64,000 bases of DNA from Minisyncoccota bacterium (GTDB lineage: Bacteria > Patescibacteriota > Minisyncoccia > Phycocordibacterales > Phycocordibacteraceae). Made by a program: the position numbers and the translations under genes. The stretch lies in assembly GCA_036399335.1 (NCBI GenBank), contig DASWNF010000014.1, forward strand, positions 108,033-172,032. Reading direction: 5' to 3'. The notes below the pieces were generated by a model. That model searched no databases, was not told the origin of the DNA, and worked only from the letters and a program-made list of their open reading frames with translations. Position 1 is the first letter of the stretch. Each line of letters opens with the position of its first letter. This document shows, in pieces, positions 2,070-54,986 of the stretch.

Positions 2070-2480
2070 ATGAGTAGTCCCGGCTTTGGCGCTAGGGCTC
2101 GGTCCCTGCGCAAGAAACTTGGATTAAACCCGATCCAGGCAGCCCTTGCGCTGAACATTAAGGCTCCCTCGCGAATTGAGGATATGGAACGCACCGGGGT
2201 TAGTCCCTGGACCTTCGAGGCACTCGAGTCTGCGTATTCCGCATTTCTGCACGCTGGCCCAACGTCTAGGGGGAGGAACCTGCTTTTCGGGCAGCTCCCT
2301 ATCTCAGTGGCGCGTAGCCTTCTACGCTTATCCGTTGAGGAAATAGCTGAGCGGTGTGGCTACTCCGTTTCCTTCTGGATGAGGATGGAGGCGGACCATC
2401 GGCCCCTCCGTGCTGATGTACTTAAACGGCTCGAAGCCGACGTTAAAGAAGAGGTTCGAAGGACTATTTTAAAATGCTAA
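2070..2480 (+). CDS. hypothetical protein with helix-turn-helix-like segments (possible XRE-type regulator)
   Basis: 136 aa; SD AGGAGAACC 6 nt upstream of ATG; two HTH-like segments (LGLNPIQAALALNI, LSVEEIAERCGYS); lies at the left edge of the low-GC island. Confidence 0.5.
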   Translation: MSSPGFGARARSLRKKLGLNPIQAALALNIKAPSRIEDMERTGVSPWTFEALESAYSAFLHAGPTSRGRNLLFGQLPISVARSLLRLSVEEIAERCGYSVSFWMRMEADHRPLRADVLKRLEADVKEEVRRTILKC

Positions 2481-2522
2481 TCGCCCACAGGTCGCCCGAC
2501 CTAGTTGGGCGATTCTGTTTAT
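2479..2522 (+). terminator. rho-independent terminator after the HTH gene
   Basis: 9-bp stem AATCGCCCA/TGGGCGATT followed by CTGTTTATT. Confidence 0.5.
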
Positions 2523-2537
2523 TGCTGGCTTAGGAAC
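2522..2537 (+). repeat. short copy (L) of the interspersed repeat family: TTGCTGGCTTAGGAAC
   Basis: Shares TTGCTGGC...GGAAC ends with the family consensus; sits directly after a terminator like copies A, G, H and K. Confidence 0.45.
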
Positions 2538-3002
2538 AACTAAGCCTTATAAAAAGTGGGCCGTTGCGCGAAGCAACGGCCCGTGGATCCTACCAGACGA
2601 GTGAGTTTCCTCACTAGCCAAAACGTCGCACCTGAAAGCGCATAATGACTCGTCTCCGAAGCTTCGGCGGGTGGCTTGAGCCCTCGCACGATACGGCTAT
2701 CCATTTGCCCTTAACGAGCTTTTGAAAGCTGCTTTTAGCCACTACTTTGGGGCCTTAGCTGTCGGTTAGGGATTATCCCTCTATGGTTTCCTTGACCAAG
2801 GATTTTCAGTCTTAATGCGGAAACCACCTCAGATCCGTATTTAGCCTAGCACCATCAAAGGACTTGTCCAGTACAGGTGTGGATGCTGGGTACGCGTCGC
2901 ACCGCTTCCGGTGCGGCCACGAGACACACGGCACTTTGCCGCTCTGACGCACTGCCCGCAGCCAGCGAGAAGCCCGCTTCCTCACGGCAGCGGGCTTTTT
3001 TC
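2538..3002 (+). ncRNA. candidate structured non-coding RNA (~460 nt), unclassified
   Basis: No credible ORF on either strand; many local hairpins (GGGCCGTTGC/GCAACGGCCC, CCGAAGCTTCGG, AGGGATTATCCCT, GCACCGCTTCCGGTGC); ends in a strong terminator AGCCCGCttcctcacggcAGCGGGCTTTTTT at 2971-3002; flanked by repeat copies L and A. Confidence 0.35.
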
Positions 3003-3007
3003 TTACC

Positions 3008-3028
3008 GGGCGGTAGGATGTTGGAATC
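3008..3028 (+). repeat. partial copy (A) of the interspersed repeat: GGATGTTGGAATC
   Basis: 3' half of the consensus ...GATGTTGGAAC; immediately follows a terminator. Confidence 0.4.
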
Positions 3029-3030
3029 TA

Positions 3031-3531
3031 CTAATCCTGTGCAACTTCTTCCGAGACACTTTGGTTGCGCGTAAGTATTAATCGAGGTTCACCCGTATCG
3101 TCGTAATTTTCCTCTCTGCCGGTAATTTGGAAATCATAGGATTGATACAACTTAACCGCATTATTTTCAGGGTGAACTCTTAACCAGACTTGCGGAGCAC
3201 TCTTCAGGTGCTCAAGGATTTGTTCCAATGCCCTGCGTCCAAGGCCTTGTTTCTGATATTCAGGGTCTATCGCAAGGCCGTTGATGTACGCTCTTCCATC
3301 TTCTTCTATTGCGTACGAGGCTGCCCCCACTACCTGGTCTCCTCGTCTTATAAAAAACATTGGTCCCTTCCTATACTCCTCTTCAGCCTCTGAACGATCT
3401 TGAGCGGCCGCATATGTTTTGCCCTGGACTTTCTTCTCCAACGCGACATACGCCTCAAGGTCGTCGAGCGTCATGCGTTGAAGCTCTATAGGCATTTGGG
3501 GGCCTCGCTCGCCCTTACTTTCAACTGACAT
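3031..3531 (-). CDS. GNAT family N-acetyltransferase
   Basis: Acetyl-CoA binding motif QKQGLGRRALEQILEH; 3031..3582 ORF with likely start at an internal Met; low-GC codon usage. Confidence 0.7.
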   Translation of the reverse strand: MSVESKGERGPQMPIELQRMTLDDLEAYVALEKKVQGKTYAAAQDRSEAEEEYRKGPMFFIRRGDQVVGAASYAIEEDGRAYINGLAIDPEYQKQGLGRRALEQILEHLKSAPQVWLRVHPENNAVKLYQSYDFQITGREENYDDTGEPRLILTRNQSVSEEVAQD

Positions 3532-3589
3532 GTCGAAAGTATAGCAGCCAAGCAAATGCTGGGCTCTGAAACGATGTCGCATCCTGCTG

Positions 3590-4063
3590 TTATAAGTAGG
3601 ATGCGAACTCTTCGTCAGAAAGTTCTAGAAGGGTCGCGTCTCGCGAAATGGGGAGCGTGGTCATCTCAACTCCCATCCAAGGTAAGGGGACGAAATTCTC
3701 CGCCTCTTCCACTGAGGTAAACTCCACTTCGGCACGCATTAAACCCTCATACTTGCCACGATATACCTGTATAGAGATTTTTGGGTTCTCAGAAATGTCG
3801 TAGCGATCTCTAACTAAGGCGTCTGGTGCTACTTTCTTGAGTGTATCGAACTCCTCAGCTGAAATTTCCTTCTTCTCTCGAGTGCGCTCTAAACTAGATA
3901 AAAGTTCCTTTCTTTCATAAAAGTACTTCTCATTTATTTTGGAAATCCTCTCCTCAATATTACCTTCGTTCTTTAGGATATGTCGTTCGTAGTGAAGTGG
4001 GGCTATGCCAGACATGTTAGGCATTTCCCTTACATAAAACTTTCGCTCGATTTCATTTTGCAT
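3590..4063 (-). CDS. CYTH-domain protein (triphosphate tunnel metalloenzyme family)
   Basis: 157 aa; N-terminal EIERKFYV signature of the CYTH/CyaB-ThTPase family; AT-rich; 8 nt upstream of the GNAT gene, so probably co-transcribed. Confidence 0.65.
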   Translation of the reverse strand: MQNEIERKFYVREMPNMSGIAPLHYERHILKNEGNIEERISKINEKYFYERKELLSSLERTREKKEISAEEFDTLKKVAPDALVRDRYDISENPKISIQVYRGKYEGLMRAEVEFTSVEEAENFVPLPWMGVEMTTLPISRDATLLELSDEEFASYL

Positions 4064-4067
4064 AATC

Positions 4068-4370
4068 TCAGGCAGCTTTACATACTTTTTTGGTCACGGC
4101 ATCAACAAATAAACGGAAAGCCGGTCGCCTCTCTTTCTCCCAAATAACCCTTACTCCAAGGATGTGCTTATTGGGGCATGCAAATGTTTCTTCCGCGGTA
4201 GGGACTGCCGAATTGATGATGCGATCTAAGTACATACGCCTCAGCGTACCCGGTCCGTCTTTTTGATAAAGGCAGATGTGCTTCGAACATTTTTCGCAGG
4301 CGATATCCAAAAGTCGAGCATATCCCCCACGAGACTTTCTGTACTTGTCGCTTTTAAGGAGACTAGTCAT
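4068..4370 (-). CDS. small Cys-rich (zinc-ribbon-like) hypothetical protein
   Basis: ~100 aa from an internal Met (MTSLLKSD...); CEKCSKHIC...CPNKH spacing; TACAAT -10-like box 9 nt upstream; the 5' extension of the ORF runs through repeat copy B and is rejected. Confidence 0.45.
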   Translation of the reverse strand: MTSLLKSDKYRKSRGGYARLLDIACEKCSKHICLYQKDGPGTLRRMYLDRIINSAVPTAEETFACPNKHILGVRVIWEKERRPAFRLFVDAVTKKVCKAA

Positions 4371-4389
4371 GCAGTGATTGTAACAACGA

Positions 4390-4418
4390 TTGCTGCACTC
4401 TGGGGCGATGTTGGAACC
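4390..4418 (+). repeat. interspersed repeat copy B: TTGCTGCACTCTGGGGCGATGTTGGAACC
   Basis: Near-consensus copy in the gap between two minus-strand island genes. Confidence 0.6.
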
Positions 4419-4425
4419 AGTATTT

Positions 4426-5097
4426 CTAGTATTTGTCCCCTTCTTCGATAGCAATAACTGGCAATTTATATCCTTCGGTTAGAAGTACCTGCTGTATTTC
4501 ACTTACTCGACCCCTCGGCGCTTCAATATGAGTGAATTTCTTGATAGAAATTGGCTCTAATACCCTATCTTCATGCAAGTCGACAAATTCAGAGCCATGG
4601 GTAATTGCATAGGCTTCGCGTTCAACGCCAATTAGAATTGGGTAGTTGGATGATATATCTGTACCGCCGCGAAGAAGAAGATAAAAAAGCGATTGGTTTT
4701 TGTGGGTAAACTTCGCTATGAATGTCGCGGCCTTACTCCTATAGCCAACAGTAAACGGAAGCGGTACGCGTTCCTTCCAAGCGACCCATACGCTTGGAAG
4801 GAGGTAGCGACAGCACCAGAGGCAACGGTTACAGAGCTCTTGCAAACTTCTCTGGCTTTTTGGGAAAAAGAGGCTTGCATACAAGCGTGCGTACCCTCGC
4901 GAACGGGCAAATGATACTGACCGTGCATGCGGACGCTTTTGGTCTGAAGCGTCGTCATAAATAGAGAGTCCACCTTCGTGCAGTATTCCTTTTAAAATAT
5001 CCATGACTTCTCCATTTTCATATTTATAGCGGCCGGTTCCATGCCAAGAACCAATGTTCTCGTAAAGCTCTTCAATTTTTGAGCTGGGTTCACGCAT
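4426..5097 (-). CDS. hypothetical protein (223 aa), low-GC island cargo
   Basis: Long ORF with AT-rich codon usage distinct from the core genome; no recognisable domain. Confidence 0.5.
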   Translation of the reverse strand: MREPSSKIEELYENIGSWHGTGRYKYENGEVMDILKGILHEGGLSIYDDASDQKRPHARSVSFARSRGYARLYASLFFPKSQRSLQELCNRCLWCCRYLLPSVWVAWKERVPLPFTVGYRSKAATFIAKFTHKNQSLFYLLLRGGTDISSNYPILIGVEREAYAITHGSEFVDLHEDRVLEPISIKKFTHIEAPRGRVSEIQQVLLTEGYKLPVIAIEEGDKY

Positions 5098-5123
5098 AGA
5101 TATAGAAACTATACCAATACTAA

Positions 5124-5149
5124 TTGCTGGACTCTGTGATGTTGGAGCC
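5124..5149 (+). repeat. interspersed repeat copy C: TTGCTGGACTCTGTGATGTTGGAGCC
   Basis: Shortened copy of the consensus. Confidence 0.5.
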
Positions 5150-5205
5150 CTTTTACAGTATGCAATTAGAAGCCCCCGGGATGTTGGTCCCGGGGGCGAG
5201 GCGCT

Positions 5206-5853
5206 TCACGAGAGCGCGAGGGCTTGGAGATTTTCTCGTGCCTGCGGCTCAAGGTGTTTGAAGTGCGGGGTGAGGTAGATCTTTGGGCGTTCGAGGAACG
5301 TGGCAGCCCACATCTTCCTGCCCTCATCGTACTCGGCGCGTGTATACCGCGGCTCGTATTCGAGCCAGATGGCTTCCGTTTGCGACTGGAAGTACGCAGG
5401 GTCCTGTCCCAGCCCCCAGAGATCGAGGTCGATGAGCGGTGCGACGATGTTGACGAAGCGCTCATCCACGCATTCCAGGGTATGGGTGATAGTCGCGGTA
5501 ATGCCCTGGTACACGAGCTCTTCAAGAGGCGGGTGCCGTTCACCGTCACGGCGTTGCAGGTCTTCAATTGCCAGCCGAGCGCTTTCACGCTCGCTCTCAC
5601 CGTGTTCACGACCGACCTTAAGCCAGCGGTCGTGGCTCACGATAAGGAATTTAAGCAGAAGGAGCTCGTTCCCCATCAACACGAGGCCGCGCGCCCCTTC
5701 CAGCATGCCGAGGATATGGTTGGCATCATGGTACGTCCGCCACCTCTCGGAATAGGAGCAGCAGAGAGGCTCGACTGCCGCATAGGGGATGCCGAGCTCG
5801 CCGTAGATTTCGGTAACGGCCAGCCGCAGTTCGTCTGTCGGACTAAATTTCAC
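5206..5853 (-). CDS. hypothetical protein, possible HD-type metal-dependent phosphohydrolase
   Basis: 215 aa; GTG start with strong SD GAGGAGGG 4 nt upstream; His/Asp motifs (RTYHDANH, IVSHD) reminiscent of HD hydrolases; a competing 224-aa antisense ORF (5224..5898) is judged less likely. Confidence 0.45.
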   Translation of the reverse strand: MKFSPTDELRLAVTEIYGELGIPYAAVEPLCCSYSERWRTYHDANHILGMLEGARGLVLMGNELLLLKFLIVSHDRWLKVGREHGESERESARLAIEDLQRRDGERHPPLEELVYQGITATITHTLECVDERFVNIVAPLIDLDLWGLGQDPAYFQSQTEAIWLEYEPRYTRAEYDEGRKMWAATFLERPKIYLTPHFKHLEPQARENLQALALS

Positions 5854-5979
5854 AACGCCCTCCTCAAAGGTCTATGGTTTAAGCCAGCTTCACGATAATA
5901 CACAATAGTGGATATGTATAGGACGATTGGGCCTGGGATGATGCCGAGGTTTTTATATACAAAACCGCCCCAATCATCG

Positions 5980-5996
5980 TTGCTGGGACGGGCTTC
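5980..5996 (+). repeat. degenerate copy (M) of the interspersed repeat: TTGCTGGGACGGGCTTC
   Basis: Left half plus GGGACG core only; intergenic. Confidence 0.25.
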
Positions 5997-6005
5997 ATGG
6001 TCTGA

Positions 6006-6263
6006 TTAGACCGTTTCGAGCTTGGACGGGGGGACATTGGCTTGGTAACCAGGTCCCCCATTGTCGAAGTTGACTCGTACCACTCCCCCCGCATCTTCGG
6101 GGAGATGCTGGAGTCGAGAGTCCCAGACGTCGCCAATCTCTCCTTTCGGAATCGGCGAGTATCCAGGGAAAGGAACCTCCTCGGTCGTTCGCACCCTGCG
6201 ACCGCCCAGAGAAGGACGAACGGGTACTTGCCCGGCGACTCGGTCATCTTTGATAACAGACAT
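6006..6263 (-). CDS. hypothetical small protein (85 aa)
   Basis: ATG preceded by a canonical SD AGGAGGTG at 8-nt spacing. Confidence 0.5.
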   Translation of the reverse strand: MSVIKDDRVAGQVPVRPSLGGRRVRTTEEVPFPGYSPIPKGEIGDVWDSRLQHLPEDAGGVVRVNFDNGGPGYQANVPPSKLETV

Positions 6264-6316
6264 AACACTCACCTCCTGTCGCTATCTAACTACGAATGCA
6301 CCGCTCTGTCCATTAC

Positions 6317-6338
6317 TGCTCTGGGACGATGTTGGAAC
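6317..6338 (+). repeat. interspersed repeat copy D: TGCTCTGGGACGATGTTGGAAC
   Basis: Consensus core; lies 14 nt upstream of a small plus-strand ORF. Confidence 0.55.
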
Positions 6339-6351
6339 TTTTCTGTACGAA

Positions 6352-6540
6352 ATGCCGCCCATTGACCCGGGCGGCACGGCTCGAGACTTACCGTGTCTCG
6401 AGAGCCTCAACCCGCGCAGGAGGCGGATGCTGGAGGCCTGGGAAAAGTTGGCCGCTCTACCGACCCAACTGGTGCTCTTAAGAAATGCTTTGATCAACGC
6501 TTATCAGCGGGGTTGGCCCAAATGTTACTTTCTGAGATGA
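6352..6540 (+). CDS. hypothetical small protein (62 aa)
   Basis: ATG 14 nt downstream of repeat copy D; no SD; Arg-rich; could be a spurious ORF within the high-GC patch. Confidence 0.25.
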   Translation: MPPIDPGGTARDLPCLESLNPRRRRMLEAWEKLAALPTQLVLLRNALINAYQRGWPKCYFLR

Positions 6541-6625
6541 CCCACCTTTCAAATCACTAAACGTAACAGTTTCACCTTTAGAGCCAAACCCGTATCAACT
6601 TCAACGAGGAAATAGAAGTGTAGTT

Positions 6626-6655
6626 TTGCTGGCAGTCTGGGACGACGTTGGAACC
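6626..6655 (+). repeat. interspersed repeat copy E: TTGCTGGCAGTCTGGGACGACGTTGGAACC (near-consensus)
   Basis: Full-length copy. Confidence 0.65.
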
Positions 6656-6659
6656 TTTA

Positions 6660-6693
6660 TTTAAAAGACCACCCTCTCGCCGCAGCGAGAGGG
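6660..6693 (-). terminator. rho-independent terminator of the minus-strand gene 6715..6975
   Basis: Stem CCCTCTCGC/GCGAGAGGG followed by TGGTCTTTT on the minus strand. Confidence 0.5.
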
Positions 6694-6714
6694 GATCTCG
6701 CGGACATTGGGTGG

Positions 6715-6975
6715 TCAGCCTTGTGGCGGCTTATACGGCCTGGTACCGCCGCGCATGGCCATGACAGGAATCGGGAACGCATCGTTGAAGTCGTGGCCGC
6801 CTTCCTCTTCGAGGATCAGGACGACGGCATCGCAAATCGAGTCGAGCTCTTCTTGTTGCATGCCCATGAACTTCTTGGAATAAAGACGCGCCATGACATG
6901 CGAGGTTGTCGGGTCGATGCTGTTCTCCCCCGTGTCATCCGAAATGAAGGTTACGGTCGTCGAGTCGAGGAGCAT
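6715..6975 (-). CDS. hypothetical small acidic protein (86 aa)
   Basis: AGGAG 10 nt upstream of ATG; followed by a terminator. Confidence 0.4.
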   Translation of the reverse strand: MLLDSTTVTFISDDTGENSIDPTTSHVMARLYSKKFMGMQQEELDSICDAVVLILEEEGGHDFNDAFPIPVMAMRGGTRPYKPPQG

Positions 6976-7141
6976 TCCGAGTCGCTCCTGATAGAGCTGT
7001 TGAATCCGAGCACGAATTCTGCGCTTCTGCTCCGCTCACTTGCGTAGAAGCCTGAAATATCAACGATCGGCATGACGCCTCTCCCTTTGTGCTGTTGCAG
7101 GGATTAATATAGCACATATTCACCAGCTTGTCATCACTTCC

Positions 7142-7171
7142 GTGCTGGCAGTCTGGGACGATGTTGGAACC
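7142..7171 (+). repeat. interspersed repeat copy F: GTGCTGGCAGTCTGGGACGATGTTGGAACC (consensus)
   Basis: Full-length copy. Confidence 0.65.
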
Positions 7172-7326
7172 TTTCATACGCTGTGGTAGCTTCTTAGCAC
7201 TTGGCAGGAGGCGTCGGAAAGCTACGGACTATCCGCAGGGATAGAAACGGCACGAGTCGGCATGCATCTGTCCGTTGAACCTACGTAACAGCGAAAGCGA
7301 GGTTGGCAGTTCGGAAAGACGACATC

Positions 7327-7358
7327 GGAGCTTGGTTAAACTAAACCAAGCTCCTTTT
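7327..7358 (+). terminator. rho-independent terminator
   Basis: GGAGCTTGGTTaaactaAACCAAGCTCC followed by TTTTATT; repeat copy G begins right after it. Confidence 0.6.
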
Positions 7359-7359
7359 A

Positions 7360-7388
7360 TTGCTGGCAGTCTGGGACGACGTTGGGAC
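7360..7388 (+). repeat. interspersed repeat copy G: TTGCTGGCAGTCTGGGACGACGTTGGGAC
   Basis: Full-length copy immediately after a terminator. Confidence 0.65.
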
Positions 7389-7694
7389 TTTTTTATCCCC
7401 AGATAGGCACTTATGCTAAACTCGTCACAGATGGCGTGATGCCTGGTACGTAGTACGGAGCAACCCTCTTAGGGCCACTGCTAGTTACCAGTCACGAAAG
7501 GCTTGAAAACGCACCCGTAGCACCCACCATAGCCCTTCCCAGCCCCCTGTTGAGTAGTGCGACCTACTCGTCGCAACAGGGTCGTGGAGGGGTTACTAGG
7601 CAGAAGAACGGCATGCGGCTGGAAGGAGTGTGCGTAAACTCCACTGGTGACATCGCGCCATTGCAGAGAGCACCCGTAAGGGTGTTTTCTGTTT
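7389..7694 (+). ncRNA. candidate structured non-coding RNA (~300 nt), unclassified
   Basis: No credible ORF; nested helices (CCCTGTTG...CAACAGGG enclosing GAGTAG/CTACTC); ends with a GNRA-capped hairpin CACCCgtaaGGGTG plus TTTTCTGTTT terminator at 7671-7694; bounded by repeat copies G and H. Confidence 0.3.
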
Positions 7695-7697
7695 CCC

Positions 7698-7724
7698 TGC
7701 TGGGGTCTGAACGATGCTGGAATC
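7698..7724 (+). repeat. interspersed repeat copy H (divergent): TGCTGGGGTCTGAACGATGCTGGAATC
   Basis: Diverged copy following a terminator. Confidence 0.45.
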
Positions 7725-7734
7725 AAGCTGGGTA

Positions 7735-7765
7735 TTGACAGACTTATTTAAGAGCAGTAAAAAAT
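7735..7765 (+). promoter_or_regulatory. sigma70-like promoter TTGACA-17 nt-TAAAAAAT
   Basis: Near-consensus -35 with 17-nt spacer and an A/T -10; upstream of the 7832 ORF. Confidence 0.45.
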
Positions 7766-7831
7766 ATTACCGCCAAGGTGGCGGTTGCCTGCGAGGAAAT
7801 GTGGGTAAGCATCCTGGAATGGGAGGCTCTA

Positions 7832-8185
7832 ATGAGTGAATCTTTTGTTCTTACGTCGACAGTCAGCTGGGCACGGTATTGGGCTCTCGTGGCCGTGCAC
7901 ATGGAGGTGAAATGCAATCCCTTAATCGCTCAAACGTGCCCGCACAAGGTCATTGTCGAACCCATCGAGAATAACGAGCGCAGCGTAATCGTTCGTGGCA
8001 TGTGCGAAGGGCAGCTCTTCAGGCTGGTTTGCCAGATTTTCCAAGTTCGCACCGGCGGGTGGCGCCTCGTGCGGATTCGTGGTTACGTCGGTACGAACAA
8101 CAACATAAACATGTCTCCCGTGAATTTCGAAGGGTACGAGGCGGCTTGGACGATCATGGAGCGAAATTATAACGAAGTCGACTAG
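7832..8185 (+). CDS. hypothetical protein (~117 aa)
   Basis: Start chosen at an internal ATG preceded by GGGAGG; followed by the terminator at 8199-8250. Confidence 0.4.
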   Translation: MSESFVLTSTVSWARYWALVAVHMEVKCNPLIAQTCPHKVIVEPIENNERSVIVRGMCEGQLFRLVCQIFQVRTGGWRLVRIRGYVGTNNNINMSPVNFEGYEAAWTIMERNYNEVD

Positions 8186-8198
8186 GCCCTGCCTATTC

Positions 8199-8250
8199 AG
8201 AGCCCTGACGGAGAGCCCTCTTGCTCTGCATCAGGGCTCTTCTAATTTTA
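8199..8250 (+). terminator. rho-independent terminator
   Basis: AGAGCCCTGA...TCAGGGCTCT stem followed by TCTAATTTTA. Confidence 0.45.
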
Positions 8251-8274
8251 AGTTGGCAGACTAGGTTTCGAACT
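8251..8274 (+). repeat. variant copy K of the repeat family: GTTGGCAGACTAGGTTTCGAACTC
   Basis: J/K subfamily (TTGCTGGCAGAyTAGGTTTCGAAC); marks the right border of the low-GC island, just upstream of yebC. Confidence 0.5.
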
Positions 8275-8312
8275 CACCTCCTTCTACGTATACGCTTTGG
8301 TATACTCCAACC

Positions 8313-8873
8313 ATGTCAGGACACAGCAAATGGGCGCAGATAAAGCGGCAGAAAGGCGTCACGGACGCAGCGCGCAGCCGCGTATTCTCTAAATTCGCGC
8401 GGCTTATCACCATTGAAGCAAAAAAGTCGGGAGGCAATGCATCAGCACCCGGACTGCTCGCCGTCATCGCGCGCGCAAAGGCGGCGAATATGCCCAAGGA
8501 CAACATCGAACGCGCGGTCACGAAGGGCGCATCGAAAGAAGCCGGGGACTTGCACGAGGTTACCTACGAATTCTACGGTCCGGGTGGCGCTGCCGTTATC
8601 GTAAACGCCCTCACGGACAACAGGAACCGCACGACGCAGGAAATAAAACACCTTCTCACGAAGAATAACTTCGAGCTCGGCACCCCGGGAAGCGCTACGT
8701 GGGCCTTTAAGAAGAATCCAGACGGTTCCTTCACGCCGAACGAACCGTTGATGGACGTCGCGGGCGACGACGAGGAAGCGCTCGGCCGCCTGCTCGAGGC
8801 GTTCGACGAACACGAGGACGTACAGAACGTCGTGACGAATGCGCGCGGGTACGAGAACACGAGCGATGAGTAG
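8313..8873 (+). CDS. yebC: YebC/PmpR-family transcriptional regulator
   Basis: MSGHSKWAQIKRQKG N-terminus diagnostic of YebC; precedes ruvC as in many bacteria; TATACT -10 box 6 nt before ATG. Confidence 0.85.
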   Translation: MSGHSKWAQIKRQKGVTDAARSRVFSKFARLITIEAKKSGGNASAPGLLAVIARAKAANMPKDNIERAVTKGASKEAGDLHEVTYEFYGPGGAAVIVNALTDNRNRTTQEIKHLLTKNNFELGTPGSATWAFKKNPDGSFTPNEPLMDVAGDDEEALGRLLEAFDEHEDVQNVVTNARGYENTSDE

Positions 8874-8879
8874 TCCTGT

Positions 8880-9356
8880 ATGAGGGTGCTCGGCATAGAC
8901 CCGGGGTATGACCGGCTCGGCATGGCCGTGCTTGAAGGCGACCCGAGCCGCCCGACATTAGTCTGGAGCGAATGCGTGCTTCCAGAAAAGGGAAACCCTG
9001 AAGCCCGGCTTGCGCGCGTGTATGCCGAAGTCGCCAGCGCCCTCACGACCTATGCTCCCGATGTGCTCGCCATCGAGACCCTCTTTTTCAGTACCAATAA
9101 GAAGACGGCGCTCGCCGTGGCCGAGGCGCGTGGCGCCATACTCGCAGCTGCGGGTATGGCGCACATTCCCGTGCGCGAATTCTCCCCCGGACAAGTAAAG
9201 CTTGCGGTTACCGGCCACGGCGCCGCCGATAAGGCCGCGATTGCACGCATGCTTCCCCATCTCCTCACCCTCCCGCCAAAGAAGCGGCTTGATGACGAGC
9301 TCGATGCCATGGCGGTCGCGCTTGCCGGACTCGCAGCAAGGCTTCCCTCACGCTAG
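8880..9356 (+). CDS. ruvC: crossover junction endodeoxyribonuclease RuvC
   Basis: MRVLGIDPG...AIE...DAMAVAL catalytic motifs of RuvC. Confidence 0.85.
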   Translation: MRVLGIDPGYDRLGMAVLEGDPSRPTLVWSECVLPEKGNPEARLARVYAEVASALTTYAPDVLAIETLFFSTNKKTALAVAEARGAILAAAGMAHIPVREFSPGQVKLAVTGHGAADKAAIARMLPHLLTLPPKKRLDDELDAMAVALAGLAARLPSR

Positions 9357-9463
9357 CCGCTATCCACACACCAAGCGCCGAAAATGGGCTTGCAAATCAA
9401 CTCGCTTTTGTTCAAATAGAGAGGCTTCGAACGCGGGGCACATATTAGTATTAGCAACGGCGT

Positions 9464-9631
9464 ATGGATGAAGAAGAAGAGGAAACCCTTGATATCGATG
9501 ATGCAGCAGTAGTGCTCGGTGATGAGGACGAGGATGAAGACGATGACGACACGGAAGAAGTGCCCGAAGGCTTCCACGAAGTCGACCCCTTCATCGGCGG
9601 CGTCGCCCCAGACGAGGAAGAACCAGTCTAA
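9464..9631 (+). CDS. small highly acidic hypothetical protein (55 aa)
   Basis: Uninterrupted ORF MDEEEEETLDIDD...; followed by a strong terminator hairpin at 9632-9663; not in the ORF track (<60 aa). Confidence 0.35.
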   Translation: MDEEEEETLDIDDAAVVLGDEDEDEDDDDTEEVPEGFHEVDPFIGGVAPDEEEPV

Positions 9632-9673
9632 ACAAACGGCCCCGCACGGGGCCGTTTGTGTTAGGATAAACGC

Positions 9674-11938
9674 ATGAAAAAAGCCAAGAAAGGCCTTGGT
9701 TCCCTCCTCCACAGCTCACATCCGTTCGTACGGCTGGGCTTCGTGGCAGTCGGTATCGCACTCGTCTTCTTGGGCGGGAGCATCCTCTGGGTAGCCTTTA
9801 CGCCAATCCCCGCACTTAATACGTTCGACCCGTCCAAGGTCGCGATGTCGACCAAGATTTACGACCGGACCGGCAAGACCGTGCTCTACGACCTCAACCG
9901 TGACATGCGCCGCACGATCGTCCCGCTTTCGGACGTCTCCCCCAACCTCCAGAAGGCGACCCTCGCCATCGAGGACTCCGATTTCTATTCGCACGGCGGC
10001 ATCAGCATCACCGGTACGGCCCGCGCCCTCCTTACGGACGTCGTAAGCATGTCATTCGCCCAAGGTGGCTCAACCATCACCCAGCAGGTGGTGAAAAACA
10101 CCATCCTGACCGGGAAGAAGAGCGTCATCCGCAAGGCGCAGGAATGGATTCTCGCCATCCGCTTCGAGGGTGAGTACACCAAGGATGAGATCCTTGAGTT
10201 CTATTTCAACGTATCGCCGTACGGCGGTACGCTCTACGGCGCCGAGGCTTCGAGCCGCGCCTTCTTCGGGAAGAGCGCGAAAGACCTCACCCTCGCCGAA
10301 GCTGCATATATGGCTTCCATCCCCCAGCGCCCGACCTACTACTCCCCGTACGGGAATAACCGCGAAGCGCTCGATGAAAGGAAGAACCTCGTGCTCGCCC
10401 GCATGCTAAAACTCGAGCAGATCACTAAAGAGGAGCATGACGCGGCGCGGAACGAAAAGGTTGCCTTCAGCCGCCAGCAGAACAACTCCATCATCGCGCC
10501 GCACTTCGTCTTTTACATCGAACAGCAGCTCGAGGAGATGTACGGCCCCGAGGTCGCGAACCAGGGCTATAGTGTTATCTCGACCCTGGACGTCGACCTC
10601 CAGCGTGAGGCCGACACCATCGTGAACCGCCACGCAATTGCGAATACCTCGCGCTTTAATGCAAGCAATGCGGCGCTCGTCGCCATCGACCCGAAGACGG
10701 GGCAGGTGCTCGCCATGGTCGGCTCTCGCGACTACTTCGATAAGGAGATTGACGGTAACTTCAATGCTGCGCTCGCGCTCCGGCAGCCGGGCTCGGCCTT
10801 TAAGCCGTTCGTGTATGCCGCAGCTATCGCCAAGGGCTACACGCGCGACACCATTGTCTTCGACCTCCCGACACAGTTCTCGACGACCTGTTCCCCAGCG
10901 GACAACCAGAACGGCGAACCGCCGTGCTACGCCCCAGGTAACTTCGACGACAAGTTCCGCGGCCCGATGACCTTCACGACGGCGCTTGCGCAGTCGATCA
11001 ATATTCCGGCCGTGAAGATCCTCTACCTCGCAGGCATCCCGAACGTGCTCACGCTCGCAAAGAGCATGGGGCTCAATACGCTCGGCGAACCCCGCGACTA
11101 CGGGCTCTCCCTTGCGCTCGGTGCAGCCGAGGTACGCCTCCTCGACCTGACGGCCGCCTTCGCGGGCTTCGGTAACGAGGGCATGGTGAATAAGCCGTAC
11201 GGCATATTGAGTGTGTCTGATGCCGCCGGGAAGACGCTTGATGACTTCAAGCCGGAGCCCAAGCGCGCCATCGACCCTGAGGTAGCGCGCGAAGTTTCCT
11301 ACATGCTTTCAAATAACGCCGCGAGAGAGAACGCAGTGAACCCATTCAACTTCCCTGGGTATGATGTGGCAGCGAAGACCGGTACGACGAACGAGTCGCG
11401 TGACGTATGGACCGTCGGGTACACGCCGTCTATCGCCATCGGTGTCTGGGCCGGAAACAACAACAACGCGCCCATGGTGAAGCAGACGGCCGGCTTCATC
11501 GTCGCGCCTATGTGGAATGAGGTCATGCGGTACGCGCTCGGTAAGTACCCGCAGGAATTCTTCAGCGCGCCGCCCGAGATACCGGCTGACGCCCCTGCAG
11601 CGCTCCGTGGCGTGTACTCGGGCCCGACGGGCGTCCACGACATCCTCCACTGGGTGAATAAGGACAACCCGCGCTCCGGCGGCTCATCACAAGGCGATGG
11701 CCAGTACCGCTACTGGGAATACCCTCTTTCGGGATGGTTTGTAGGTGGCATGCCGGACCCTAACGCAACGACGACTGCGTCAACGACACCAAGCTTCGAC
11801 TTCCTCTTCGAAGGCGAACCTGACGGCGATGGCGGCCAAGGGGATCCCGGAGACAACGGCAACAACGGGAACGGTGACGGAAACGGTAATGGCGACCCTC
11901 CCCGGCGCCCAGAGGACGACGCCGAAGACGCCGCCTAA
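9674..11938 (+). CDS. class A penicillin-binding protein (PBP1A-type glycosyltransferase/transpeptidase)
   Basis: 754 aa; N-terminal TM; GT51 motifs (EDSDFYSHGG, GGSTITQQ); transpeptidase motifs SAFK, SNN, KTGT; low-complexity G/N/D tail. Confidence 0.9.
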   Translation: MKKAKKGLGSLLHSSHPFVRLGFVAVGIALVFLGGSILWVAFTPIPALNTFDPSKVAMSTKIYDRTGKTVLYDLNRDMRRTIVPLSDVSPNLQKATLAIEDSDFYSHGGISITGTARALLTDVVSMSFAQGGSTITQQVVKNTILTGKKSVIRKAQEWILAIRFEGEYTKDEILEFYFNVSPYGGTLYGAEASSRAFFGKSAKDLTLAEAAYMASIPQRPTYYSPYGNNREALDERKNLVLARMLKLEQITKEEHDAARNEKVAFSRQQNNSIIAPHFVFYIEQQLEEMYGPEVANQGYSVISTLDVDLQREADTIVNRHAIANTSRFNASNAALVAIDPKTGQVLAMVGSRDYFDKEIDGNFNAALALRQPGSAFKPFVYAAAIAKGYTRDTIVFDLPTQFSTTCSPADNQNGEPPCYAPGNFDDKFRGPMTFTTALAQSINIPAVKILYLAGIPNVLTLAKSMGLNTLGEPRDYGLSLALGAAEVRLLDLTAAFAGFGNEGMVNKPYGILSVSDAAGKTLDDFKPEPKRAIDPEVAREVSYMLSNNAARENAVNPFNFPGYDVAAKTGTTNESRDVWTVGYTPSIAIGVWAGNNNNAPMVKQTAGFIVAPMWNEVMRYALGKYPQEFFSAPPEIPADAPAALRGVYSGPTGVHDILHWVNKDNPRSGGSSQGDGQYRYWEYPLSGWFVGGMPDPNATTTASTTPSFDFLFEGEPDGDGGQGDPGDNGNNGNGDGNGNGDPPRRPEDDAEDAA

Positions 11939-12189
11939 CGAAGCTCCATCACTTGAATACCGTCTCGGTTGAGGCGGTTTTTCAATGCGTCGAGATTGAG
12001 GAGTATGGCCGACTTAAGGACGGGCGGCACGCTAAGCACCAGGCGGCCATCCGTATGCGTGACCTGGCTTGGGGTTATGGGTACGCCCGTGACGGCGGTG
12101 ACTGCCTCCGCAACCATTTGCCTGATCCCTGCCTCCCGAAGGCCGGGCATTGGGTGCCGGGCGAGGATGTCCTTGATGGAGAATTCCAT
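11935..12189 (-). CDS. DUF721 (DciA-like) protein
   Basis: 84 aa; composition and size like DUF721 proteins that typically sit beside dnaA/dnaN/recF; assignment from motif memory only. Confidence 0.4.
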   Translation of the reverse strand: MEFSIKDILARHPMPGLREAGIRQMVAEAVTAVTGVPITPSQVTHTDGRLVLSVPPVLKSAILLNLDALKNRLNRDGIQVMELR

Positions 12190-12252
12190 GCCTCTAGCAT
12201 ACCTGCCTACTCAAGGAGAACGAAGTGATTAAAAACGGAGGTAGTCCGGGGG

Positions 12253-12810
12253 TTATACGAGGCCGCTTTGCAGCAGCTTTTTAGTAAACCGGTGCATTTG
12301 GGGATCGAGGATTGCTGGGTCAGCAGCTAGCACTTCTTCGTATCCAAACCATCGGTAGCCATGGAATTCGCTTGTGTCGAAAGTAATATGCTGCCTTGAG
12401 TCCCCTTTCACTACATACCAGAAACTCACGTCGGTATGCCCTGCAGTTAAGCCAACAGTAACCGTACGCGTGAGGAAGATTGGTAACTCAGAAATAAAGT
12501 CTGCATTTATATTAAGTTCTTCTTGTATTTCTCGCTCAACTGTCGTTTTTGGATGCTCGCCCTTCTCGACGTGCCCGCCGCTTGGCAGCCAAAGGCAGGC
12601 TTTAATATGGTCCATAAGCAGAATCTTTTTTGCCTCTGGATCTACAACAACAAAGTATGAAACAAGATGTTTGGGTGGCACGTCTGGTTTCTCAATGCGA
12701 AATATCTCTACTTCGCTCTCGATCCAATTAACAGCATCGGTAATTGTTTGCTTCTCTAGATCATCATATGGGCTTATGGCCCGTATGAGTGCGTGTATTT
12801 GCTCTCTCAT
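12253..12810 (-). CDS. NUDIX hydrolase
   Basis: Nudix box GGHVEKGEHPKTTVEREIQEELN. Confidence 0.8.
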   Translation of the reverse strand: MREQIHALIRAISPYDDLEKQTITDAVNWIESEVEIFRIEKPDVPPKHLVSYFVVVDPEAKKILLMDHIKACLWLPSGGHVEKGEHPKTTVEREIQEELNINADFISELPIFLTRTVTVGLTAGHTDVSFWYVVKGDSRQHITFDTSEFHGYRWFGYEEVLAADPAILDPQMHRFTKKLLQSGLV

Positions 12811-12827
12811 CAGGTTAGAGACTGGAC

Positions 12828-13928
12828 CTACTGGTTCATCGGCATCACGAGGTAGAGGAAGGTGTTGTCACCGACGCCGCGGATGACGAGCGGGCGGCCG
12901 ATGCCGGCGGACGAAAGAGAAAGGTTCTCGCTCGTGATAAGCGAAAGCGGCGCTGAAAGGTACCGATGGTTGAAGGAGAGTTCGATAGGTTCGCCCGTGA
13001 GTGAGGAAGTGACGCTTTCATTCGACTCTCCGACATCACTGTTACGCGCCGAAAAGAACAACTGTTTATCCGGGACGGAGAAGCTGACGCGGATCTTCTG
13101 GAATGAGTCGGAGAAGACGGCGGTACGGCGAAGGACGGCCTCGAAGTCTTTCTTGAGGACGGTGGCCTCGCAGGAGAACGACTTCGGGATGATCTGGGTG
13201 TAGTCAGGATACGGCACGGTCACGAGACGGGTCGTCACGAGGCCGGTGTTCCAAGAAAAGGCGCATTGGTGCTCGTCGATAAGCACTTCCACATTATCGT
13301 CCGGTATGGTCTGGACGATATCGAGTGCATTCTTCGCGGGAATGAGTATTGAGAAGGGGGTGATCGACCCTGATACGGGCATGCGCTTCTCCGCCAGGCG
13401 GAAGGAGTCGGTCGCGACGGCCTTTATCGTCCCTGCTTCAGCTGAAAGGAGTACACTTCCGAGCTCAGGGCGCACTGTCGACGGTGAAGCATATGCGGCA
13501 ACCGCCCCGACAAGCGCCCGAAGTGAACTTCCCGCGAGCGAAAATTTGGTCTTACCTGCGTCCGGAAGCGGCAGTGTAGGGAAATCCTCGTAGGCAAGGG
13601 TCTTGAGGGTGCTCTTGCCCGCTTTTGAGCCGAGGATGACTGTTTCTCCCGTATGCTCAAGTTTGATTAACCCCGTGTCCGTGAACGACCCGGTTATCTC
13701 GCGAAGGGTGGTTGCAGGAAGGACGACTACACCCGGAGTCTCAATCGTTCCATTCACCCGCAAATCGATTCCCGTCTCAAGGTTTGTTGCGCGAAGCTTG
13801 ATACCGTCGTCACCCGCAATGATGGCGATACCTGCGAGAACCGGGAGTGTTGCTGAACGACGTTCTGCAAATCGTGCGACCCGAAGAACAGCTTCCGCGA
13901 ATTCCTTCTTTTCTAAAGTGATAACCAT
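12828..13928 (-). CDS. dnaN: DNA polymerase III beta sliding clamp
   Basis: 366 aa three-domain clamp; immediately downstream of dnaA. Confidence 0.9.
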   Translation of the reverse strand: MVITLEKKEFAEAVLRVARFAERRSATLPVLAGIAIIAGDDGIKLRATNLETGIDLRVNGTIETPGVVVLPATTLREITGSFTDTGLIKLEHTGETVILGSKAGKSTLKTLAYEDFPTLPLPDAGKTKFSLAGSSLRALVGAVAAYASPSTVRPELGSVLLSAEAGTIKAVATDSFRLAEKRMPVSGSITPFSILIPAKNALDIVQTIPDDNVEVLIDEHQCAFSWNTGLVTTRLVTVPYPDYTQIIPKSFSCEATVLKKDFEAVLRRTAVFSDSFQKIRVSFSVPDKQLFFSARNSDVGESNESVTSSLTGEPIELSFNHRYLSAPLSLITSENLSLSSAGIGRPLVIRGVGDNTFLYLVMPMNQ

Positions 13929-14170
13929 GAAATGCTTATTATTAGGGGTGTTGATACTGGGGAAACGAAACTCTATCCAGTATATATGCCGCGTAAGGGT
14001 CTGCCCACGAACTGATAACTCGGTTGCTGCACGACTTCTGCTTGGGGAGAACTATAAGCCCGTAAAAGCTTGCGTGGATAAGTAGTGGTGATTTTCATGA
14101 CTTGTACCCACCTATCCACTGAGCTTTTCATTGTTTATTCATAACTTCTCCCCAGCCTTATGCCTCTTGC
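13929..14170. promoter_or_regulatory. dnaA-dnaN intergenic region with DnaA-box-like sites (candidate oriC)
   Basis: CTTATCCAC (complement of GTGGATAAG), CTATCCACT and CTATCCAGT resemble the TTATCCACA consensus; AT-rich. Confidence 0.45.
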
Positions 14171-15544
14171 TTAAACAAGGAGGCTGCGTATGTCCTGAAT
14201 CTCCTTCGCGAGTTCAGCATCGTTAACGATTTCCCGCTTCACTTTCTCGCACGAATGGATGACGGTCGTATGGTCGCGTCCGCCAAGCTTGCTGCCGATG
14301 GTCGGGTACGAGACGCTGAAGTCCTCACGGAGGATATACATGATGACCTGGCGAGGCCGCACCACTTCCCTGCGGCGGGTCTTCTCATAGATACTGTCTT
14401 CCTCAATGCCGTAGAACTCGGCGATCTTTGAGACGACATGTTTCACTGAGACGGTCTTGGTAGGCCGCGAGAATGAGCGGAGCGATTGGCGCACCTCGGC
14501 AAGGTCGGGCGGTATGCCCTTTACCTGCGTATGGCAGACAATCGAATTGATGACGCCCTCGAGCTCGCGAATAGAGCCTGATACGGAGGTCGCAATGAAC
14601 TCTACCGCCTCTTCAGCGAGCGTAATGCCTTGGGAAGCGAGCTTCTTCCGCACGATGGCAATACGGGATTCGGCGTCAGGCTCGCTGATATCGACCGTCA
14701 TGCCGCTCGCAAGGCGCCCGCGAAGGCGATCGGCGATATCAGGAATCGCTACCGGTGCCCTATCGGAGGAGAAGACGATCTGCTTGTTGTTGTCGTAGAG
14801 GGAGTTAAAGAGGTGGAAGAGCTCCTCCTGGAACTTGTCCTTCTTCGAGAAGAACTGGACGTCGTCGATGATGAGGAGGTCATACCCGCGGTACTTATCC
14901 TTAAAGCGGTTTGCCGTCCCGAGCTGGAGGGAGTCGGTGAACTCGTTTCCGAACCGGTCCGAGGTCAGGTAATAGACCTTCCGGGAGGGATAGAGCTTCT
15001 TGTACTGGTTCCCTATCGCCTGGATAAGGTGGGTCTTGCCGCGGCCGGTATCCCCGTAGATGAAGAGCGGGTTGTAGGTAATGCCGGGGCGATGAAGCGC
15101 TGCCTGGGCAGCCGTATAGGCGAGCTCGTTGAAGGGGCCGACGACGAAGGTGTCGAAGGTATAGCGCGGGTTGAGGTTGTCGCTCTTATTAATGTAGAAG
15201 TCGTTTAGCGGGAGCTCGGTGTTTGGCACCGGAGCGCGGCGTACTTCCTTGGGTTTTCGGGATGCGTCCTTCACTATCGTGTACTCGATATTGCGGTACT
15301 CGTATGAGACCCCACGCAAGATCTTGAGAAGGAGCGTGTGGAACTTCTTGAGGTACCAGTCGCGGAAGAACTGGCTCGGTACGCCGATGTAGACGATACC
15401 GTCCTCTATCTTCTGGATCGAACTCTCACGGAACCAGGTGTTGAAGTTGGCGGGCGAGATGGAGAGCTCGACCTGGGTGAGCATGAATTCCCATAACTCA
15501 TGCGGGTCAGAACGGTTAACAACGTTAGAAAGGGTGAGACTCAT
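14171..15544 (-). CDS. dnaA: chromosomal replication initiator DnaA
   Basis: 457 aa; AAA+ Walker A GDTGRGKTHL; C-terminal DNA-binding domain; canonical synteny. Confidence 0.95.
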   Translation of the reverse strand: MSLTLSNVVNRSDPHELWEFMLTQVELSISPANFNTWFRESSIQKIEDGIVYIGVPSQFFRDWYLKKFHTLLLKILRGVSYEYRNIEYTIVKDASRKPKEVRRAPVPNTELPLNDFYINKSDNLNPRYTFDTFVVGPFNELAYTAAQAALHRPGITYNPLFIYGDTGRGKTHLIQAIGNQYKKLYPSRKVYYLTSDRFGNEFTDSLQLGTANRFKDKYRGYDLLIIDDVQFFSKKDKFQEELFHLFNSLYDNNKQIVFSSDRAPVAIPDIADRLRGRLASGMTVDISEPDAESRIAIVRKKLASQGITLAEEAVEFIATSVSGSIRELEGVINSIVCHTQVKGIPPDLAEVRQSLRSFSRPTKTVSVKHVVSKIAEFYGIEEDSIYEKTRRREVVRPRQVIMYILREDFSVSYPTIGSKLGGRDHTTVIHSCEKVKREIVNDAELAKEIQDIRSLLV

Positions 15545-15818
15545 GCGCGCAGAAACGTATTACCTGATAAGAACCCGTATCCTGAATCGTAAGCGCGTAC
15601 TTTCTACCGGGGTTCATCGTTTCCAAAGTATACGCAGGTTTTTTCTTTAGTGAAGTTTTAGGGAATTTCTTACCCACCTGAGCGCAAGCTGTTATTAACC
15701 TGTGGATATCCTTAAATCCCGAGCCATGAATACCAGGTTTTATTGCCCCAAAACGTAATTTGTGGGAGAATGCTCGAAATTAACCATTCCCGACCTCAAA
15801 GCCGGATTTTAGAGATAT
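15545..15818. promoter_or_regulatory. rpmH-dnaA intergenic region with DnaA-box-like sites and an AT-rich stretch (candidate oriC or dnaA promoter region)
   Basis: TGTGGATAT (8/9 to TGTGGATAA) and TTACCCACC; A/T-rich segment near 15640-15700. Confidence 0.45.
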
Positions 15819-15971
15819 ATGCCTAAGCGAACGTACCAACCGAAGAAAAGGAAGCGCGCCCGAACCCACGGTTTCCTTGCCCGTACCGCGACCCCTGGAG
15901 GGCGCCGCGTGCTTCTTGCCCGCCGCCGCAAAGGACGCGCAAGCCTGACGGTTTCGAAGAAAGTAAGGTAA
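15819..15971 (+). CDS. rpmH: 50S ribosomal protein L34
   Basis: 50 aa [45 protein letters not shown]; not in the ORF track (<60 aa); directly upstream of rnpA. Confidence 0.9.
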
Positions 15972-15977
15972 TACGCC

Positions 15978-16304
15978 ATGTTTCCGCGTAAGCTTCGGCT
16001 TTCTCGTCGCGGTTTCGAGTCGGCTCGCGGCCTCAATAGGGCGGCGAGCCGTTACTTTTCTGTCTCCCACGGTCCCGCTCCCGAGGAAGGAGGTGCTGCC
16101 GTCGTAGTCTCAAAGAAGGTGGCGCGCCTCTCGGTTATGCGCCATCTCCTAAGGCGACGGGTCATGGCCGTCGCCCGCCCGTACGCGTCCCCCGAGCGAG
16201 CGCTTATCATCCATGTGCGTCCGGGTGCCGGGCAGGTGGCCTTCCCTCTGCTTCGGGATGAGCTTATTGGGCTATTACGGTCTATACTACCTGCACAACC
16301 ATAA
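15978..16304 (+). CDS. rnpA: RNase P protein component
   Basis: 108 aa basic protein; conserved rpmH-rnpA-yidC order. Confidence 0.85.
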   Translation: MFPRKLRLSRRGFESARGLNRAASRYFSVSHGPAPEEGGAAVVVSKKVARLSVMRHLLRRRVMAVARPYASPERALIIHVRPGAGQVAFPLLRDELIGLLRSILPAQP

Positions 16305-41090: not shown

Positions 41091-41188
41091 GCTCCAATAC
41101 TACATTACTGCCGGATTCTGAAATGATGGAACCTTTCTACAACTATGATAGGTTGGGAACCAGAACTGCGAGGGAGGATTCCGTGAGA

Positions 41189-41503: not shown

Positions 41504-41591
41504 TGACACCAAGTAAAAGCCCCTGCAATGAGGGGCTTCTTTTATCTTGGCAGAATAGGTTCCAGACCTTTGGGTGGTATAGAATGCGGGC

Positions 41592-54974: not shown

Positions 54975-54986
54975 TTTGTACCCGTC

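Follow-up and report, generated by a model that had tools for sequence, protein, structure and literature searches.

Two non-coding cassettes of a Patescibacteria genome belong to a family of repeat-bounded, tRNA-Gln-linked arrays

We analyzed a window of 64,000 nt from a Minisyncoccota bacterium (assembly GCA_036399335.1, contig DASWNF010000014.1, positions 108,033 to 172,032) and focused on two adjoining segments, unit 1 and unit 2, that lie between copies of a 33-nt direct repeat, here called R. Both units are genuine self-contained non-coding cassettes, and the repeat that bounds them recurs across Patescibacteria in arrays closed by a second site, T, which corresponds to the 3' end of tRNA-Gln. 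On balance, we favor the reading that such arrays are typical of Patescibacteria and consist of mini-cassettes moved at R and T, units 1 and 2 being two non-coding cassettes of one of them. The part of the window that holds the units is organized as follows:

7142-7174, forward strand: R copy F, 32 of 33 positions as in the consensus, with TTGGAA (7164-7169) at the -35 position for unit 1
7175-7359, forward strand: unit 1, a non-coding cassette with a promoter-like site, a terminator hairpin and no homologue
7360-7392, forward strand: R copy G, 30 of 33 positions as in the consensus
7393-7697, forward strand: unit 2, a non-coding cassette with a -10-like site, a multi-branch fold and a terminator hairpin
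7698-7724, forward strand: R copy H, degenerate, a gapped match

The consensus of R is TTGCTGGCAGTCTGGGACGAYGTTGGAACCTTT. A 27-mer of the repeat has three near-perfect matches in the window (three mismatches or fewer) against 0.00 expected, and ungapped copies with at least 21 of 33 positions matching number seven, all on the forward strand, against 0.1 in shuffled sequences; four further copies align only with gaps. Three arrays can be recognized, at about 2999-8273, 41105-41569 and 54946-55578, each closed by a site T, and the first of these, which carries both units, sits between ruvB (34-1038) and yebC (8313). With repeats so far beyond chance, the statement of an earlier note on this DNA that the two units are bounded by repeat copies is borne out.

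Each unit ends in a terminator-like hairpin. In unit 1, a perfect 11-bp stem (GGAGCTTGGTT/AACCAAGCTCC, 7327-7354) with a 6-nt loop is followed by TTTTATT, and repeat G begins 5 nt past the stem, in keeping with the perfect 11-bp hairpin, U tract and repeat G of the earlier note. Upstream, TTGGAA within R is followed after 17 nt by TGgTAGCTT (7184-7192), and the RNA predicted from this promoter-like site would span about 7199-7361 (~160 nt). In unit 2, an extended -10-like element (TGcTAAACT, 7414-7422) precedes a predicted RNA of about 7429-7696 (~265 nt). The minimum-free-energy fold of 7429-7696 on the forward strand is a closed multi-branch structure with a z-score of -3.9, matched by none of 200 shuffles, in agreement with the nested long helices that had been pointed out for this unit; a 12-bp helix, in which 7430-7441 pairs with 7651-7662, joins its 5' and 3' ends just before the terminator. 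The minus strand of the whole unit gives a z-score of -0.3. The terminator is the GNRA-capped hairpin described earlier: GCACCC and GGGTGT enclose GTAA at 7670-7685, the stem extends to 13 bp (7663-7692), and the T-rich run TTTTCTGTTT follows, partly inside the hairpin. This hairpin is missing from the output of a consensus terminator scan, probably since the extended stem takes up the greater part of the T run. At the consensus level, both units show what is expected of a stand-alone small RNA (sRNA) gene, namely a promoter, no open reading frame (ORF) and an intrinsic terminator, all on one strand. The units are probably transcribed into RNAs of ~160 nt and ~265 nt and would most likely act as cassette-borne small RNAs.

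We also considered that the units are decayed protein-coding cassettes, that is, pseudogenes whose hairpins and promoter-like sites are leftovers that yield no functional RNA. Degenerate repeats occur in the array, the neighboring gene at 6715-7073 is possibly frameshifted, most cassettes of this type are coding, the units are orphans without conserved relatives, and both strands of unit 2 contain open frames of 81-91 codons, all of which would suit decay. We nevertheless consider it unlikely. Six-frame segments of at least 20 amino acids (aa) from both units have no match among 5.8 billion protein clusters, a result that bears on the gene remnants whose detection by protein searches would, according to the earlier note, refute its reading. 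For the 81-aa minus-strand ORF of unit 2, a full HMMER scan returned repetitive-sequence matches only, and a local search against the ORFs of related loci yielded no match with an E value under 0.04. None of the start codons in unit 1 or unit 2 is preceded by a ribosome-binding site, whereas the neighboring cassette at 6343-6625 has AGGAGG-ATG. The promoter-like sites and terminators are intact and rightly placed on the forward strand, and the fold of unit 2 closes exactly between the predicted start and the terminator. The units can therefore be called non-coding, as had been proposed for them. An Rfam search, likewise suggested earlier, found four tRNAs only at gathering score in the window and nothing within 7142-7730 at E <= 10; the non-coding cassettes of 18 other loci also returned no family. 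A 21-mer from unit 2 had no match in metagenome contigs.

The repeat is not confined to this genome. Scanning one genome per species and metagenomes for R, we recovered loci with 2-10 copies in Parcubacteria/Paceibacterota, Saccharibacteria, Nomura-, Lloyd-, Wolfe- and Berkelbacteria, all counts being lower bounds. In the genome scan, exact copies number 2-6 per 8-kb locus, and a stricter pattern recovered at least 120 metagenome loci with 306 copies. The copies are co-oriented in every locus that has two or more (40 genome and 82 metagenome loci). The segments between them, at least 280 cassettes, range from 152 to 3515 nt (median 520 nt); the longest ORF is a minus-strand one in 161 of them and a plus-strand one in 94. 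Their proteins almost never cluster together, show almost no Pfam resemblance and are hyper-diverse ORFans. Many cassettes are equipped with a promoter-like site of their own, and their terminator lies directly against the following R. Extended -10 motifs (TGnTAnnnT) concentrate 17-18 nt past the TTGGAA of R: 46 of 74 occurrences, or about 10% of the 475 distinct R copies in the census, unit 1 among them. Separately, a conserved module, CTTTATGCAATCTATGTTAGGTTCTGTCTAGA, follows a subset of R copies ahead of unrelated genes.

The modular layout of repeat, unit, terminator and repeat proposed in the earlier note therefore stands, since the same repeat bounds at least 280 cassettes and whole cassettes are gained or lost exactly at it (see below). 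Its suggestion that the repeats punctuate sRNA cassettes is not supported: the array type is mostly protein-coding, and only 14 of the 266 cassettes assessed for ORF content lack an ORF of at least 50 aa. The non-coding share comes to about 5-10%, and several cassettes of this share encode proteins of 37-38 aa. One RNA-like non-coding element of ~240 nt occurs in R/T arrays of three contigs (L042 3496-3739, minus; L366 4539-4755, minus; L352 1301-1431, plus; the labels are ours); it has a TTGACA promoter, a strong terminator and no Rfam match, and is unrelated to units 1 and 2.

Comparison of related loci places cassette turnover at R and T. In L357 and L362, the flanks and two cassettes are 92-95% identical, L357 has exactly one extra cassette together with one R, and the T-proximal cassettes are wholly different, three in L357 and two in L362. 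Homology resumes at GCTG(G/A)CAGACTAGGATTCGAACC and continues onward, so that the right part of T and the right flank are conserved. In another pair, an entire R-cassette-R segment of L369 recurs in L350 at 83% identity with an unrelated right neighbor, the left flank of L350 being too short for comparison, and further cassettes are common to otherwise different arrays. On its minus strand, behind an AAGGAG ribosome-binding site, the 250-nt cassette of this pair (L369 971-1224, L350 145-390) carries a reading frame for a peptide of 38 aa that is rich in Cys and zinc-ribbon-like; micro-protein cassettes of this kind may be common.

The syntenic interval rpsO-xer-[...]-xth-cca provides a further comparison. 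The cassettes of the window and L042 at this place are mutually unrelated, L245 reads R-cassette-R-cassette-T, L354 holds at least five R copies, and L250 has a 72-nt spacer without R. Of seven distinct genomes compared at the xer-xth interval, four, with the window and L042 among them, have an array there, one has nothing, and another has other genes but neither R nor T. The xer stop codon of L042 is directly followed by an R copy. Finally, T reads either GGCAG or GGGAG on its left side without exception, while the left part of R varies within one array (GGCAG, GGGGG, GGCTG, GGCCG), from which we infer that strand exchange takes place in or just left of the TTGCTGG shared by both sites.

Site T links the arrays to tRNA-Gln. 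Read in reverse complement, T (TTGCTGGCAGAYTAGGKWTCGAACC) gives the T arm, acceptor strand and discriminator of the tRNA-Gln of Patescibacteria. We found 51 T sites in the orientation of R, all after the last R of their array, and one further T in the opposite orientation. tRNA-Gln accounts for 38 of the 68 tRNAs in array loci, and 34 of these 38 are found on the strand opposite to R, no more than 2.5 kb past its last copy; holB and dusB are the usual neighbors of arrays that end in tRNA-Gln. An intact tRNA-Gln gene often serves as T; in the other cases, among them the three arrays of the window, T is a fragment of ~27 nt just upstream of a housekeeping gene. R itself aligns with T and with the end of the tRNA provided that its T-loop part is granted about 5-6 additional bases, the common parts being TTGCTGGCAG on the left and GGAACC/CGAACC on the right. 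Partial tRNA duplicates are present in two loci (L011 and L254). The T fragments of the window (8252-8273, 41548-41569 and 55554-55578) lie 25-60 nt before the start codons of the forward-strand genes yebC, xth and pilB, just before a -10-like box; the array end thus adjoins the promoter of a core gene and may influence it.

R behaves as a DNA-level recombination site derived from tRNA-Gln and not as part of the RNAs. In the window cassettes that were examined (both units and the one with the gene at 6715-7073), it lies outside the predicted transcripts. Other identities of the repeat were rejected. A CRISPR (clustered regularly interspaced short palindromic repeats) array does not fit, as the repeats are spaced by 152-3515 nt with genes between them and CRISPR spacers measure about 26-72 nt. 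A sigma-54 promoter, a DNA-uptake sequence, the ends of miniature inverted-repeat transposable elements (MITEs) or insertion sequences (IS), and a dif-like site were discarded on spacing, orientation, absent dyad symmetry or motif mismatch. A viral origin was also rejected: at least 120 IMG/VR matches to an 18-mer core of R all fall in one coding motif, VWDDVGTFDGRPW, and the stricter R pattern has no match in IMG/VR. The 18-nt core corresponds to codons for VWDDVGTF and gives false matches in alphaproteobacterial and other prophages (L122-L241, L003, L005, L009 and others), and the same coding motif explains single matches in Rhodobacterales, Myxococcus and others. Judged by this motif alone, the gene seems to be a prophage gene resembling DNA cytosine methyltransferases, and we take the identity with the R core as a coincidence.

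From these observations, we propose the following mechanism. An array reads R-c1-R-c2-...-R-cn-T, and cassettes are added, lost or exchanged at R and T, most likely by site-specific recombination with an enzyme encoded elsewhere, strand exchange probably occurring in or beside TTGCTGG. For unit 1, the TTGGAA of R would serve as the -35 hexamer, with the extended -10 element after 17 nt, and the transcripts of both units would end at intrinsic terminators just before the next R; since they would stop there, R itself would not be transcribed. A XerA-like recombinase is a possible enzyme. The only recombinase seen near an array is the tyrosine recombinase at 39146-40057 of the window, which is 77-88% identical across many Paceibacterota. 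It scores 250 bits against the NCBIfam XerA model (cutoff 220) and fails the XerC, XerD and integron-integrase models, reaching 136 bits for the integron integrase TIGR02249 (cutoff 265). This XerA-like enzyme is the sole candidate recombinase, and its connection to the arrays is putative.

Several results weigh against the reading of R/T cassette arrays with units 1 and 2 as RNA-bearing members. The fold of unit 1 has a z-score of -1.9, marginally better than shuffles. The units have no DNA homologues among 94 and then 280 cassettes, nor in 2.7 Mb of related loci, and the longest antisense match to a target within the window is 13 nt, which is at chance level. No recombinase was found linked to the arrays in ~160 loci by phmmer and tblastn with a tyrosine-recombinase query and by clustering of 1330 ORFs, a search that used no dedicated profiles for divergent or serine recombinases. 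R shows no dyad symmetry and no single-stranded DNA hairpin: alone or with 60-70 nt of flank, on both strands, its folding energy is -0.5 to -2.4 kcal/mol with z-scores of 0 or above, and it never pairs with a partner sequence, which sets it apart from both dif and attC sites. T also occurs at loci without a tRNA, which the reading does not account for, and the empty xer-xth site of L250 has no T. Lastly, the loci were gathered by searching for R itself, and the counts represent neither prevalence nor taxonomic limits.

Some of these points would equally suit an exchange of cassettes that requires no dedicated recombinase. R could act as a 33-bp homology adaptor through which naturally competent bacteria swap DNA that they have taken up by RecA-mediated recombination. 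The lack of a recombinase linked to the arrays agrees with this, as do the near identity of R in distant lineages, the absence of the dyad symmetry expected of a recombinase core and the presence of type IV pilus genes in the window. The breakpoint between L357 and L362 is located at T, however, and T and R share only ~10 nt, too short for homologous exchange. A tRNA 3'-end origin and strict site polarity are hallmarks of tRNA-targeting integrase sites, and the origin of R and T in tRNA-Gln and the position of T as the last site fit such sites. We regard the RecA route as improbable, somewhat more so than the decay of coding cassettes. That R is a regulatory element, such as an operator or shared promoter part, and the array an ordinary co-regulated gene cluster without mobile cassettes, is very hard to maintain: although about 10% of the copies place TTGGAA at a -35 position, some are followed by the conserved promoter module, and a direct reading of R reveals three phased YTGGNA direct repeats ~10 bp apart, the genes of the cassettes point both ways relative to R (161 minus, 94 plus), many of them with promoters of their own at differing distances, whole-cassette indels fall exactly at R, conserved loci are extremely variable in what they contain, R is derived from tRNA-Gln and a T closes each array. 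Site-specific movement of cassettes at R and T remains the reading that we prefer.

Besides the two units, the arrays of the window comprise the following features, together with the candidate enzyme:

2999-7141, forward strand: upstream part of the first array, R-separated cassettes with minus-strand genes
2999-3029 (degenerate), 3557-3585 (degenerate), 4389-4421, 5124-5152 (degenerate), 6310-6342 and 6626-6658, forward strand: R copies of this upstream part
3031-3531, minus strand: GNAT gene in a cassette
3590-4063, minus strand: 157-aa cassette gene
4426-5097, minus strand: 223-aa cassette gene
5206-5853, minus strand: 215-aa cassette gene
6006-6263, minus strand: 85-aa cassette gene
6343-6625, forward strand: short cassette between R copies E and F, with a 37-aa ORF
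6715-6975, minus strand: 86-aa cassette ORF
7725-8251, forward strand: last cassette of the first array, with TTGACA (7735-7740), 17 nt and TAAAAA, a 94-aa ORFan (7901-8185, forward strand) and a hairpin (8223-8237)
8252-8273, forward strand: terminal site T, GTTGGCAGACTAGGTTTCGAAC, reverse complement of the tRNA-Gln 3' end without a tRNA body, 40 nt upstream of yebC
39146-40057, forward strand: XerA-like tyrosine recombinase, candidate trans-acting enzyme with a putative link to the arrays
41105-41569, forward strand: xer-xth array, with a degenerate R (41105-41136), the promoter module, a gene (41184-41503), a terminator and T (41548-41569); xth starts at 41592
54946-55578, forward strand: single-cassette array between nusA and pilB, with an R whose left half is degenerate (54946-54978) and T (55554-55578)
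54987-55532, minus strand: 181-aa ORFan of the nusA-pilB array

The start of the last cassette of the first array relates to the earlier statement that unit 2 is followed by repeat H and a sigma70-like promoter. Repeat H is present and so is TTGACA at 7735-7740, but H is degenerate and the -10 element TAAAAA is weak; with its 17-nt spacing, this promoter is absent from the promoter scan listing. The short cassette at 6343-6625 looks non-coding initially, and its ATG at 6427 opens a 37-aa ORF, MLEAWEKLAALPTQLVLLRNALINAYQRGWPKCYFLR, behind a perfect AGGAGG ribosome-binding site. The cassette gene at 6715-7073 on the minus strand seems split, a 40-aa ORF starting at 7073 and the 86-aa ORF lying in a different frame; the 40-aa ORF has a good ribosome-binding site and a promoter (ATGACA, 17 nt, TATATT) at 7134-7106, and the pair could be a frameshifted pseudogene or two small genes. 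The G+C content of the island (about 2400-8400) is 44-57%, lowest at 44-47% in the cassettes at 3600-5200, and that of the flanking core genes ruvB, yebC and ruvC is 59-65%. The same island holds a third structured unit at 2583-2998 on the forward strand (~420 nt, no obvious ORF), flanked by terminator-like hairpins at 2558-2582 (minus) and 2968-2998 (plus) and then by the degenerate R at 2999-3029; its fold has a z-score of -2.6, equalled by none of 100 shuffles, and neither an Rfam family nor a homologue was found for it. A contig from Logan (SRR10954984), assembled independently from this organism, is 100% identical to positions 7143-16130 of the window and ends precisely at the first base of R copy F, as expected if a repeat or array heterogeneity interrupts assembly. 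Strain variants were sought by exact-protein look-ups, which returned only the source contig and this identical Logan contig, the organism being rare in collections.

Patescibacteria, also called the candidate phyla radiation (CPR), have tiny genomes with few recognizable mobile elements, and the route by which they gain accessory genes is an open question. Our literature search returned no paper holding the repeat sequence and none describing such arrays in CPR. If a radiation-wide cassette system is confirmed, it would offer a concrete and searchable mechanism of gene flux, recognizable by a 33-nt site that hardly varies, by its anchoring at tRNA-Gln and by mini-cassettes that number in the hundreds and are unrelated to one another. 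Such a system would also amount to a rich store of small ORFan proteins and orphan RNAs, and its recombination site, different from both attC and dif, would be one for which experiments could identify the enzyme. The array context makes units 1 and 2 specific candidates for cassette-borne RNAs rather than odd intergenic hairpins. With independently transcribed bacterial sRNAs and the non-coding cassettes of chromosomal integrons, they have in common a promoter-like site, a structured RNA without an ORF and an intrinsic terminator as cassette cargo; unlike known sRNAs, they have no Rfam family, no homologue in 2.7 Mb and no antisense target in the window.

Integrons are the first system with which the arrays invite comparison. 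Both consist of many tiny, mostly ORFan one-gene cassettes with a non-coding minority and one co-oriented site each, both have one odd end site (attI in integrons, T here), and both show rapid cassette turnover at conserved loci. R ends in GTTGGAA, near the attC core GTTRRRY. The attC site is made of imperfect inverted repeats (R''-L''/L'-R') that fold as a single-stranded DNA hairpin, and attC clusters lacking an integrase are known as CALINs. Whereas attC is conserved in structure, R is conserved in sequence and unfolded, as tested by folding. The IntI integrase that lies beside attI in integrons has no counterpart here, the tyrosine recombinase scoring 136 bits against a cutoff of 265. Integron cassettes are mostly promoterless, co-oriented and driven by the Pc promoter, whereas those described here lie on both strands with their own promoter-like sites and terminators. 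The anchor, a tRNA-Gln 3' end, and the occurrence of several arrays per genome are also unlike integrons.

A second resemblance is to small modules that depend on Xer recombination, namely the pdif/dif modules of Acinetobacter plasmids and IMEX (integrative mobile elements exploiting Xer), which likewise have short conserved sites and depend on a housekeeping-type Xer encoded elsewhere, as the present arrays would. The sites of Xer/dif modules measure 28-30 bp, with inverted 11-bp arms around a spacer of 6-8 bp, which in dif itself is 6 bp long, and they alternate in orientation. R and T lack this architecture and are all direct.

The third comparison is with tycheposons, the tRNA-anchored genomic islands of Prochlorococcus built by integrases (bioRxiv 10.1101/2020.12.28.424599). 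Tycheposons and the present arrays have in common a site at the tRNA 3' end, direct repeats of partial tRNA between insertions, newer insertions that push older ones away from the tRNA, and a streamlined genome with few classical mobile elements. The units here are much smaller, about 0.15-3.5 kb with a median of 0.5 kb, and carry no integrase or replication module; the internal repeat R is modified by extra T-loop bases and is not a plain tRNA fragment, and T is also found at loci without a tRNA. Of the features by which tRNA-targeting elements in general are recognized, insertion at a tRNA 3' end with partial-tRNA direct repeats is seen here, whereas the tyrosine-recombinase search and the ORF clustering found no element-encoded integrase in or beside the arrays. 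The cassette system therefore works like an integron or a tRNA-anchored island, yet it departs from both in the features that define them. We tentatively suggest, with somewhat less confidence than we place in the arrays themselves, that it may be the Patescibacteria analogue of the integron, in which the tRNA-Gln 3' end, or copies of it ahead of housekeeping genes, would act as the dock, an unstructured 33-nt mimic of tRNA-Gln, conserved in sequence, as the cassette site, and an unlinked, possibly XerA-like recombinase as the enzyme, shuttling self-expressed mini-genes, together with structured RNAs of the kind of units 1 and 2, across the radiation.

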